This document shows positions 8,672-62,422 of a stretch of DNA of 64,000 nt, piece by piece. Positions within the stretch are counted from its first letter, which is position 1. Every line of letters begins with the position of its first letter. The position numbers and the translations under genes were made by a program. The notes beneath the pieces were generated by a model, which saw only the letters and a program-made list of their open reading frames with translations, did not search any database and was not told where the DNA came from. Source of the DNA: Escherichia coli. Lineage in GTDB: Bacteria; Pseudomonadota; Gammaproteobacteria; Enterobacterales; Enterobacteriaceae. The stretch lies in the NCBI RefSeq assembly GCF_045037415.1, contig NZ_CP173438.1; one strand, written 5' to 3'.

Positions 8672-11545
8672 ATGACACAGACGTTAAGCCAGCTTGAAAA
8701 CAGCGGCGCTTTTATTGAACGCCATATCGGACCGGACGCCGCGCAACAGCAAGAAATGCTGAATGCCGTTGGCGCACAATCGTTAAACGCGCTGACCGGC
8801 CAGATTGTGCCGAAAGATATTCAGCTTGCGACTCCGCCGCAGGTTGGCGCACCGGCGACCGAATACGCCGCACTGGCAGAACTCAAGGCTATTGCCAGTC
8901 GCAATAAACGCTTCACGTCTTACATCGGCATGGGTTACACCGCCGTGCAGCTACCGCCGGTTATCCTGCGTAACATGCTGGAAAATCCGGGCTGGTATAC
9001 CGCGTATACTCCGTATCAACCTGAAGTCTCCCAGGGCCGCCTTGAAGCACTGCTCAACTTCCAGCAGGTAACGCTGGATTTAACCGGGCTGGATATGGCC
9101 TCTGCTTCTCTTCTTGACGAAGCCACCGCTGCCGCCGAAGCAATGGCGATGGCGAAACGCGTCAGCAAACTGAAAAATGCCAACCGCTTCTTTGTTGCTT
9201 CTGACGTTCATCCGCAAACGCTGGATGTGGTCCGTACTCGTGCCGAAACCTTTGGTTTTGAAGTGATTGTCGATGATGCGCAAAAAGTGCTCGACCATCA
9301 GGACGTCTTCGGCGCGCTGTTACAGCAGGTCGGCACTACTGGTGAAATTCACGACTACACTGCGCTTATTAGCGAACTGAAATCACGCAAAATTGTGGTC
9401 AGCGTTGCCGCCGATATTATGGCGCTGGTGCTGTTAACTGCGCCAGGTAAACAGGGCGCGGATATTGTTTTTGGTTCGGCGCAACGCTTTGGCGTACCGA
9501 TGGGCTACGGTGGCCCACACGCGGCATTCTTTGCGGCGAAAGACGAATACAAACGCTCAATGCCGGGCCGTATTATCGGTGTATCGAAAGATGCAGCTGG
9601 CAACACCGCTCTGCGCATGGCGATGCAGACTCGTGAGCAACATATTCGTCGTGAAAAAGCGAACTCCAACATTTGTACATCCCAGGTCTTGCTGGCAAAC
9701 ATTGCCAGTCTGTATGCCGTTTACCACGGTCCGGTTGGCCTGAAACGTATCGCTAACCGCATCCACCGTCTGACCGATATCCTGGCGGCGGGCCTGCAAC
9801 AAAAAGGTCTGAAGCTGCGCCATGCGCACTATTTCGATACTTTGTGTGTGGAAGTGGCCGACAAAGCGGGCGTGCTGGCGCGTGCCGAAGCGGCTGAAAT
9901 CAACCTGCGTAGCGATATTCTGAACGCGGTTGGGATCACCCTTGATGAAACCACTACGCGCGAAAACGTGATGCAGCTTTTCAGCGTGCTGTTGGGCGAT
10001 AACCACGGGCTGGACATCGACACACTGGACAAAGACGTGGCTCACGACAGTCGCTCTATTCAGGCTGCGATGCTGCGCGACGACGAAATCCTCACCCATC
10101 CGGTGTTTAATCGCTACCACAGCGAAACCGAAATGATGCGCTATATGCACTCGCTGGAGCGTAAAGATCTGGCGCTGAATCAGGCGATGATCCCGCTGGG
10201 TTCCTGCACCATGAAACTGAACGCCGCCGCCGAGATGATCCCGATCACCTGGCCGGAATTTGCCGAACTGCACCCGTTCTGCCCGCCGGAACAGGCTGAA
10301 GGTTATCAGCAGATGATCGCGCAGCTGGCTGAGTGGCTGGTGAAACTGACCGGTTACGACGCCGTTTGTATGCAGCCGAACTCTGGCGCACAGGGCGAAT
10401 ACGCGGGCCTGCTGGCGATTCGTCATTATCATGAAAGCCGCAACGAAGGGCATCGCGATATCTGCCTGATCCCGGCTTCTGCGCACGGCACTAACCCGGC
10501 TTCCGCGCATATGGCAGGAATGCAGGTGGTGGTTGTGGCGTGTGATAAAAACGGCAACATCGATCTGACTGATCTGCGCGCGAAAGCCGAACAGGCGGGC
10601 GATAACCTCTCCTGTATCATGGTGACCTATCCTTCCACCCACGGCGTGTATGAAGAAACGATCCGTGAAGTGTGTGAAGTCGTGCATCAGTTCGGCGGTC
10701 AGGTTTACCTTGATGGCGCGAACATGAACGCTCAGGTTGGCATCACCTCGCCGGGCTTTATTGGTGCGGACGTTTCCCACCTTAACCTGCATAAAACTTT
10801 CTGCATTCCGCATGGCGGTGGTGGTCCGGGTATGGGACCGATCGGTGTGAAAGCGCATCTGGCTCCGTTTGTACCGGGTCATAGCGTGGTGCAAATCGAA
10901 GGCATGTTAATCCGTCAGGGCGCGGTTTCTGCGGCACCGTTCGGTAGTGCCTCTATCCTGCCAATCAGCTGGATGTACATCCGCATGATGGGCGCAGAAG
11001 GGCTGAAAAAAGCAAGCCAGGTGGCAATTCTTAACGCCAACTATATTGCCAGCCGTCTGCAGGATGCCTTCCCGGTGCTGTATACCGGTCGCGACGGTCG
11101 CGTGGCGCACGAATGTATTCTCGATATTCGCCCGCTGAAAGAAGAAACCGGCATCAGCGAGCTGGATATTGCCAAGCGCCTGATCGACTACGGTTTCCAC
11201 GCGCCGACCATGTCGTTCCCGGTGGCGGGTACGCTGATGGTTGAACCGACTGAATCTGAAAGCAAAGTGGAACTGGATCGCTTTATCGATGCGATGCTGG
11301 CTATCCGCGCAGAAATTGACCAGGTGAAAGCCGGTGTCTGGCCGCTGGAAGATAACCCGCTGGTGAACGCGCCGCACATTCAGAGCGAACTGGTCGCCGA
11401 GTGGGCGCATCCGTACAGTCGTGAAGTTGCAGTATTCCCGGCAGGTGTGGCAGACAAATACTGGCCGACCGTGAAACGTCTGGATGATGTTTACGGCGAC
11501 CGTAACCTGTTCTGCTCCTGCGTACCGATTAGCGAATACCAGTAA
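8672..11545 (+). CDS. gcvP: Glycine dehydrogenase (decarboxylating), glycine cleavage P protein
   Basis: 957-aa [33 protein letters not shown]...; length and sequence match GcvP. Confidence 0.95.
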
Positions 11546-11567
11546 TTTACTGATTCGACTATCTTCT

Positions 11568-11590
11568 AAAGGCGCTTCGGCGCCTTTTTC
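11568..11590 (+). terminator. Rho-independent terminator of gcvTHP
   Basis: ggcgc-ttcg-gcgcc hairpin followed by ttttt about 22 nt after the gcvP stop; flanked by A-run, so possibly bidirectional. Confidence 0.7.
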
Positions 11591-11710
11591 GCTTGTTAAT
11601 AAAGTGCGCTTTGTGTGTTTCGGTTGAGGCGTAATATAAAATATTGCGAGCTCAATATATTAAAAGAGTGCCAGGCCTGATGAGCGGAGCACATCAGGCA
11701 CATCGGCTAA

Positions 11711-13171
<1,461 letters not shown>

Positions 13172-57452: not shown

Positions 57453-57526
57453 GCGGGCGTAGTTCAATGGTAGAACGAGAGCTTCCCAAGCTCTATACGA
57501 GGGTTCGATTCCCTTCGCCCGCTCCA
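57453..57526 (+). tRNA. glyU: tRNA-Gly (anticodon CCC)
   Basis: 74-nt sequence gcgggcgtagttcaatggtagaacgagagcttcccaagctctatacgagggttcgattcccttcgcccgctcca; cloverleaf with CCC anticodon in the cttCCCaag loop; 3' CCA encoded. Confidence 0.95.
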
Positions 57527-61660: not shown

Positions 61661-62422
61661 ATGATTTTAAGTGCATTTTCTCTCGAAGGTAAAGTTGCGG
61701 TCGTCACTGGTTGTGATACTGGGCTGGGCCAGGGGATGGCGTTGGGGCTGGCGCAAGCGGGCTGTGACATTGTTGGCATTAACATCGTTGAACCGACTGA
61801 AACCATCAAGCAGGTCACGGCGCTGGGGCGTCGTTTTTTAAGCCTGACCGCCGATCTGCGAAAGATTGATGGCATTCCAGCACTGCTGGATCGCGCGGTA
61901 GCGGAGTTTGGTCATATTGATATCCTGGTGAATAACGCCGGATTGATTCGCCGCGAAGACGCTCTCGAATTCAGCGAAAAAGACTGGGACGATGTCATGA
62001 ACCTGAATATCAAGAGCGTATTCTTCATGTCTCAGGCAGCGGCGAAACACTTTATCGCGCAAGGCAATGGCGGCAAGATTATCAATATCGCGTCAATGCT
62101 CTCCTTCCAGGGCGGGATCCGTGTGCCTTCTTATACCGCATCAAAAAGCGGTGTGATGGGCGTGACGCGATTGATGGCGAACGAATGGGCTAAACACAAC
62201 ATTAATGTTAATGCGATAGCTCCGGGTTACATGGCGACCAACAATACTCAACAACTGCGGGCAGATGAACAACGTAGCGCGGAAATTCTCGACCGCATTC
62301 CAGCTGGCCGTTGGGGACTGCCGAGTGACCTGATGGGGCCGGTGGTGTTCCTTGCCTCCAGCGCTTCAGATTATGTGAATGGTTATACCATTGCCGTGGA
62401 TGGCGGTTGGCTGGCGCGTTAA
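61661..62422 (+). CDS. kduD: 2-dehydro-3-deoxy-D-gluconate 5-dehydrogenase (SDR family)
   Basis: 253 aa; SDR motifs TGCDTGLG and YTASKSGV (YxxxK). Confidence 0.94.
   Translation: MILSAFSLEGKVAVVTGCDTGLGQGMALGLAQAGCDIVGINIVEPTETIKQVTALGRRFLSLTADLRKIDGIPALLDRAVAEFGHIDILVNNAGLIRREDALEFSEKDWDDVMNLNIKSVFFMSQAAAKHFIAQGNGGKIINIASMLSFQGGIRVPSYTASKSGVMGVTRLMANEWAKHNINVNAIAPGYMATNNTQQLRADEQRSAEILDRIPAGRWGLPSDLMGPVVFLASSASDYVNGYTIAVDGGWLAR

Follow-up and report, generated by a model that had tools for sequence, protein, structure and literature searches.

We analyzed the interval between gcvP and bglA in a 64,000-nucleotide (64-kb) stretch of Escherichia coli DNA, referred to herein as the window. gcvP, which encodes the glycine decarboxylase P protein and is the last gene of gcvTHP, occupies positions 8672..11545 on the plus strand as a 957-aa ORF, with its TAA stop at 11543-11545. 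The convergent gene bglA (6-phospho-beta-glucosidase A) is encoded by the minus strand at 11711..13144; viewed on the plus strand, its stop codon appears as TTA at 11711-11713. Both genes are annotated as such (bglA with 477 aa) in strain SA186, which is 100% identical at this locus. An earlier sequence-only reading placed the two stops 165 bp apart, and the coordinates of the spacer, 11546..11710, give exactly this length. That reading also found no ORF in the spacer, in agreement with the ORF list, which contains none of at least 40 aa inside 11546..11710; the only ORF overlapping the spacer (11484..11627, 47 aa) begins within gcvP and is read in a different frame. Among complete E. coli genomes, the 1,165-bp junction of the window was present at 100% identity in SA186 and other strains and at 99.3% in E2348/69. 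K-12-type genomes match this junction only as two pieces, with ygfF between them.

Inverted-repeat detection and folding located two hairpins in the spacer, at the places where the sequence-only reading had put them. The first is an intrinsic-terminator-like hairpin on the gcvP side (11568..11589, plus strand), with an 8-bp stem, a UUCG loop, and a T5 run. Its sequence is AAAGGCGC-TTCG-GCGCCTTT (11568-11587), with the T run reaching 11589. The arms form a perfect 8-nt inverted repeat, and the calculated folding energy was -13.5 kcal/mol (z = -2.4 versus shuffled controls). As a G+C-rich stem-loop directly before a U run, it is a predicted intrinsic terminator, and with the A tract upstream it could act bidirectionally. 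A promoter and terminator consensus scan of the spacer returned 0 terminators and no promoter-like site. Since the scan was blank even for the obvious gcvP terminator, we relied on folding and inverted-repeat detection. The omission is apparently a false negative; we think that the rule behind the scan runs the stem on into the T run and so overlooks this terminator.

The second, REP-like hairpin lies at the bglA side (11670..11707, minus strand) and was identified as a fold and an inverted repeat, GCCGAUGUGCCUGAUG...CAUCAGGCCUGGC followed by ACUCUUUUAAU. Its core, GCCTGATGAGC/GCACATCAGGC at 11675-11699, has 11-nt arms that are 91% complementary. The folding energy was -20.4 kcal/mol (z = -3.8), and none of 200 shuffles was as stable. 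On the minus strand, an interrupted U run, CUCUUUUAAU, lies a few bases past the extended stem and was not flagged by the consensus scan. The hairpin is positioned to terminate bglA transcription and may serve as its terminator. It resembles what we take to be the REP/PU consensus, GCC(G/T)GATG...(C/T)ATC(A/C)GGC, which presumably has many extragenic copies per genome. A loose REP pattern fits this hairpin and one other place in the window; because there were only these two matches, we call the hairpin "REP-like" only. Between the two hairpins is an AT-rich palindromic core (11632..11669; palindromes at 11632-11662, inverted repeats I1, I3, and I5), and G+C content is 38% over 11590-11675. Rfam covariance models applied to 11300-11950 gave 0 matches at E-values up to 1, and the spacer thus provides no evidence of a known sRNA. 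We suggest, from the sequence features, that what remains in the spacer is probably functional punctuation only, namely, a conserved gcvP terminator and a REP-like hairpin now situated at the end of bglA.

The sequence-only reading placed ygfF between bglA and gcvP in K-12 and concluded that it appeared to be missing here. This K-12 order is right: MG1655 carries bglA (b2901), ygfF (b2902), and gcvP (b2903), with ygfF on the gcvP strand in a bglA-gcvP interval of 1,066 bp, and K-12 accordingly does not share the 165-bp spacer. A tblastn search with K-12 YgfF did not detect ygfF between gcvP and bglA or elsewhere in the 64-kb window; the sole match was the SDR gene kduD at 61694-62407, with 27% identity. 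gcvP is thus not followed on its strand by an SDR ORF of approximately 247 aa. The further suggestion of a lineage other than K-12 was supported, as the locus is 100% identical to that of SA186 and not K-12-like. The "empty glyU site" on which this suggestion partly drew also holds. glyU, encoding tRNA-Gly (CCC), is present at 57453-57526, and the identical strain SA186 continues directly into yqeG-yqeF-kduI-kduD. In K-12, an ETT2 remnant presumably lies between glyU and yqeG.

We then counted the states of the interval in 5,426 complete E. coli genomes, 5,425 of which hold the locus. Type Y has ygfF in the interval and was found in 3,057 genomes (56%); the gene is chromosomal and essentially single-copy (3,061 places in the 3,057 genomes). 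Type S, with a spacer of 163-165 bp and no gene, was found in 2,349 genomes, counted as those covering at least 80% of the spacer. In type T (17-18 genomes), ygfF is replaced by a gene for a 297-aa PF13557 outer-membrane-channel-like "transporter"; these are the 17 genomes outside the S count in which the match to the S core stops after its first half. The three types add up to 5,424 genomes out of 5,425, and thus partition the species almost exactly. The window belongs to type S, because its spacer is collinear with that of the other members from the gcvP stop to the bglA stop, with the same two junctions. Although the absence of ygfF is real, the word "missing" understates how frequent it is: the short spacer is a major allele of the species. 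The spacer of the window is an ordinary inherited variant that occurs in approximately 43% of complete E. coli genomes, and there is nothing unusual about it. It is neither private to the genome of the window nor recent in it. In a literature search, we found no description of the gcvP-bglA interval as variable. One of the approximately 5,400 junction matches sits on a plasmid-classed record; probably, either the replicon is mislabelled or the plasmid carries a large piece of the chromosome.

S-type strains include SA186, E2348/69, LF82, ATCC 25922, SE15, APEC O2:K1:H7, IAI39, O157:H7 EDL933 and EC4115, and O145 RM8988, and Y-type strains include K-12, BL21, O111:H8, O121, and Shigella. We take E2348/69, LF82, SE15, ATCC 25922, IAI39, and O157:H7 to represent the early-branching phylogroups B2, F, and E. 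S versus Y presumably corresponds, roughly, to phylogroups B2, F, and E versus A and B1, and the closest matches of the window include strains that we assume to belong to phylogroup B2.

The S allele itself has subtypes. The O145-like subtype comprises 441 genomes in the 80-90% identity band, with 87-89% overall identity to the window. Between the window and the O145 subtype, 13% of spacer positions are different. Most of these differences fall in the AT-rich core, where the S allele varies most (29 of 44 positions identical). This poor conservation of the core between the subtypes argues against a further functional element in the spacer. Both junctions are identical in the two subtypes, which suggests a single origin of S. 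The C terminus of BglA differs: it is ...GENL* in the window (11711-11719) and ...GEKL* in the five other E. coli alleles compared, that of the S-type O145 strain among them. The two endings differ by three nucleotide changes, which fall within the final two codons and directly adjoin the junction. The ENL* ending was also found in Enterobacter sp. Bisph1.

The flanking genes diverge by 2-4%, with no peak towards the junction, and the flanks of K-12 are closer to those of the S-type O145 strain than to those of the Y-type strain N96. Flank relatedness does not track the allele type, as recombination around the locus would produce.

Several deviating loci were noted in individual genomes. N96 (L083:1268-2305) and 107 other genomes have a divergent ygfF allele that is 93% identical to that of K-12, with flanks approximately 3% off K-12. 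The spacer upstream of the N96 ygfF contains a second, inverted copy of the gcvP terminator and approximately 90 bp that resemble the S/T scaffold; positions 104-216 of N96 are the reverse complement of positions 22-134 of the T-type strain AST85 at 73% identity. In E. coli 2017-02-2CC (L087:4786-5766), an IS621 (IS110-family) transposase gene lies between gcvP and ygfF. The insertion measures approximately 1.28 kb in total relative to N96, with which this strain is otherwise 100% identical there. Two candidate intermediates were rejected. HH97 (L085:2266-3101) has an 836-bp interval and no CDS; this interval is a homopolymer-ridden copy of the K-12 interval at 74% identity, in which the lack of a callable ygfF is most likely an assembly error. 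WB61 (L095:2500-2510) has no more than the final 171 bp of the T interval and was considered as a T-to-S intermediate; however, its junction contains N characters, which cut short gcvP and the PF13557 gene. HH97 and WB61 are both RefSeq "complete" genomes with assembly defects at this locus.

The T allele was found in E. coli AST85 (L086:2961-4356) and in Salmonella enterica (L088:3546-4941). Pfam PF13557 (Phenol_MetA_deg) was identified in the closest relatives of its protein. At the nucleotide level, the T cassettes of E. coli and Salmonella are 96% identical, whereas the gcvP and bglA flanks are approximately 87% identical, which indicates that the cassette was exchanged between the genera by recombination in the flanks. 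In one lineage (L096:3410-4303), two ORFs of 192 and 88 aa take the place of an intact PF13557 gene, which is therefore a probable pseudogene; the cluster of the 192-aa protein has 207 member sequences. The PF13557 gene appears to decay repeatedly as well. Two PF13557 proteins were rejected as candidates for the E. albertii locus: P0005 belongs to an unrelated locus, and P0002 to a T-type locus of another species that is approximately 80% identical to E. coli.

The ancestral state was examined by searching the GcvP C terminus against one genome per species. The 20 closest Enterobacterales loci were listed; they are without E. fergusonii and Salmonella, and E. albertii is represented by a contig that stops 321 bp past gcvP. 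Nine of the 20 loci have ygfF as the immediate downstream neighbor of gcvP, with both genes on one strand. In two more, Yersinia artesiana and Enterobacter sp. BIGb0383, ygfF is located a few hundred to approximately 3,200 bp downstream (11 of 20 in total). In most of the 11, the gene next to ygfF is a convergent bglA; examples are Citrobacter werkmanii, Citrobacter sp. FP75, strain RIT691, Enterobacter cloacae, Superficieibacter, Rahnella bruchi, Yersinia artesiana, and "Candidatus Pantoea persica". Two further loci, those of Enterobacter sp. Bisph1 (L007) and Mangrovibacter yixingensis (L018), keep remnants of ygfF and, judging from these remnants, represent independent ygfF deletions. Since gcvP-adjacent ygfF is widespread in Enterobacterales, we regard its presence as ancestral at the order level and its absence as a derived, recurrent loss.

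Based on these results, we consider it probable that the 165-bp spacer is a lineage-inherited S allele, one of three states of the interval, that reflects a derived loss of ygfF and is probably the remnant of a T-like interval rather than an excision from K-12-like sequence. The polarity within E. coli may be viewed differently. The ancestor of the species may have been without ygfF (S or T), and the lineage of K-12, B1 strains, and Shigella may have re-acquired the gene from a relative by homologous replacement. At this site, Salmonella is without ygfF, and the 321 bp that could be read past gcvP in E. albertii do not contain it. The S state is that of E2348/69, LF82, SE15, ATCC 25922, IAI39, and O157:H7, the strains that we take to be early-branching. 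Among the 120 best relatives of YgfF listed, identity drops from at least 94% (E. coli, Shigella, and unclassified Escherichia) to 85% or less (Klebsiella, Citrobacter, and Metakosakonia), with two fragments at 90-92% between these groups, and there is no E. albertii or E. fergusonii entry in this list. Cross-genus exchange does occur in this interval, as demonstrated by the T cassette. However, the order gcvP-ygfF-bglA is the same in many Enterobacterales, and so vertical retention explains the distribution equally well; the identity gap of YgfF fits retention in Y and re-acquisition alike. Furthermore, the gcvP and bglA flanks of K-12 are not unusually divergent from those of S-type strains, and no donor was identified. 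We view a gain within E. coli as possible but doubtful. It concerns the polarity inside E. coli only, and is compatible at the family level with the loss that we favor. The timing of ygfF loss within Escherichia is something that we infer.

The composition of the spacer bears on how the S allele arose. The gcvP terminator (spacer positions 20-44) is invariant in the S, T, E. albertii, and K-12 alleles. The segment that follows (11590..11631) is, in the alignments, common to the T-type (PF13557) allele, Salmonella, and E. albertii and absent from K-12; it holds a small hairpin, AAAGTGCGCTTT (11601-11612), and a degenerate REP-like stretch. The first 86-87 bp of S match the T allele of AST85 at 92%. 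Homology with Salmonella enterica (L088) extends 81 bp past the gcvP stop, to position 11626 of the window, and the E. albertii type strain has 69 bp in common with S at 90%. At spacer positions 45-86, 35 of 42 positions are identical to T and 27 of 42 to E. albertii, while only 23 of 42 are identical to K-12, with 48 gap columns. Similarity is lower at positions 87-130 (23 of 37 identical to T and 14 of 33 to E. albertii). At positions 131-165, 26 of 35 are identical to E. albertii. The bglA-side hairpin at S 132-155 matches E. albertii 134-158, at the same distance from the gcvP stop, and the local alignment of the two hairpins scored 28, whereas none of 300 shuffles exceeded 23. The rest of the E. 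albertii contig, which stops 321 bp past gcvP, is 69% identical to the region upstream of the AST85 PF13557 gene. An exact 11-mer, CAGTTTGTTAG, is common to the region upstream of the K-12 ygfF (L001:5457-5467, approximately 55 bp upstream) and the E. albertii interval (L003, 201-211), and a similar 11-mer, CAGTGTATTAG, is found in the T allele. With E = 0.15, CAGTTTGTTAG may be a trace of a common scaffold or a chance match.

The most direct route to S would be a simple loss of ygfF, along with the repeats that precede it, from a K-12-like (Y) interval. Y and S both have the gcvP terminator in the 44 bp after the stop, and are approximately 70% similar over the last approximately 35 bp around the bglA stop. 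Internal deletions of ygfF have also occurred independently elsewhere, and Bisph1 and Mangrovibacter each keep the first ygfF codons. However, apart from these two ends, S does not match K-12: the entire 1,066-bp K-12 interval contains nothing that corresponds to approximately 100 bp of S (11590-11690), and therefore the absence is probably not a simple excision of ygfF from K-12-like sequence. Unlike the deletions in Bisph1 and Mangrovibacter, no ygfF remnant is present in the window, and positions 45-86 are, as described above, much closer to T than to K-12. We consequently regard direct deletion as unlikely.

A derived loss through a T-like interval appears to be more consistent with these homology boundaries. 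ygfF directly downstream of gcvP on the same strand would be the ancestral Enterobacterales arrangement. By differential loss, which is the simplest interpretation, Y would have kept ygfF and T the PF13557 gene, and S would have lost both. The S spacer would represent the gcvP-proximal approximately 160 bp of a T-like interval, now fused to the bglA stop, and this T-like interval would be the arrangement of Salmonella, rare E. coli, and apparently E. albertii. We give the specific step from a T-like interval to S about an even chance. We do not rate it higher because homology is weak at S 87-130, the PF13557 gene of E. albertii is inferred from a contig that ends 321 bp after gcvP, the PF13557 gene was found in the interval in 0 of the 20 outgroup loci listed, and no direct repeats or other deletion scar were identified at the S junction. 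Two metagenome-derived loci carry both genes in the order gcvP-ygfF-PF13557-bglA (L089:2850-4903 and L090:1961-4014); they are approximately 85% identical to E. coli and have Citrobacter-like synteny. These loci possibly provide a picture of an ancestral two-gene interval. The idea of a two-gene ancestor is based on these two loci, Salmonella, and one other species (L092/L093).

A broader view is that the interval is a long-lived replacement site, at which ygfF, PF13557, and empty alleles predate or cross species, are shuffled by recombination in the flanks, and are maintained by niche at intermediate frequency. We attach little probability to this view. If it is true, a niche-dependent value of YgfF, a glucose 1-dehydrogenase in vitro, or of the channel protein might keep the alleles at intermediate frequency. 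An ancient balanced polymorphism visible as raised divergence of the flanks was rejected, since no such elevation was seen. A misassembly, or a ygfF relocated elsewhere in the source genome, is very improbable: the locus is faulty in other records (the garbled HH97 interval and the N characters of WB61), but the 1,165-bp junction is identical in many independent complete genomes, the S spacer recurs in 2,349 of them, ygfF is a single-copy chromosomal gene where found, Y, S, and T partition the genomes near exactly, and the 64-kb window contains no ygfF.

The distribution of the alleles is relevant to how the function of YgfF is regarded. K-12 YgfF matched the NCBIfam SDR equivalog model NF007273 (PRK09730) with 531.6 bits (cutoff 406). 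Purified YgfF was reported to exhibit glucose 1-dehydrogenase activity in vitro (PMC10645960), and a later critical re-analysis accepted this assignment and placed the protein in the SDR63C subgroup (PMC12506659). However, 44% of complete E. coli genomes are without ygfF, and this "y-gene" of K-12 is accessory. Any physiological role proposed from K-12 is, therefore, dispensable for nearly half of the species. The state of ygfF, combined with that of the glyU site, which is empty here, is an ordinary lineage marker with little value beyond strain typing. The three alleles and the cassette shared by E. coli and Salmonella provide a small example of gene turnover via recombination in the flanks.

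The locus may be compared with several known arrangements. K-12 has the same convergent flanking genes as the window and the same gcvP terminator hairpin, with 42 of the 44 bases after the stop identical. In contrast to the window, it has a 1,066-bp interval with ygfF (247 aa) and a different bglA-side hairpin. Upstream of ygfF, K-12 also carries two hairpin/G-quadruplex repeat elements (PMC5100583). None of these features is present in the window. The T allele shares the flanking genes and the first approximately 86 bp after gcvP (92%) with the window; however, only the T allele has the 297-aa channel-like gene, which is preceded by 455 bp of AT-rich sequence, and a terminator of its own beside bglA. 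In Bisph1 and Mangrovibacter, as in the window, gcvP and bglA have come to lie within approximately 170-290 bp of each other by the loss of ygfF, but recognizable start and/or end codons of ygfF are kept there, whereas the window keeps none. Other E. coli strains have the S allele itself. The window is 100% identical to SA186, the core of its spacer is 98.9% identical to those of LF82, IAI39, and ATCC 25922, and its identity to O157:H7 is 96.8%; the O145-like subtype is more distant, and its bglA ends in EKL* rather than ENL*. The allele is visible in thousands of annotated genomes, and gene turnover by loss and by recombination in conserved flanking genes is well understood.
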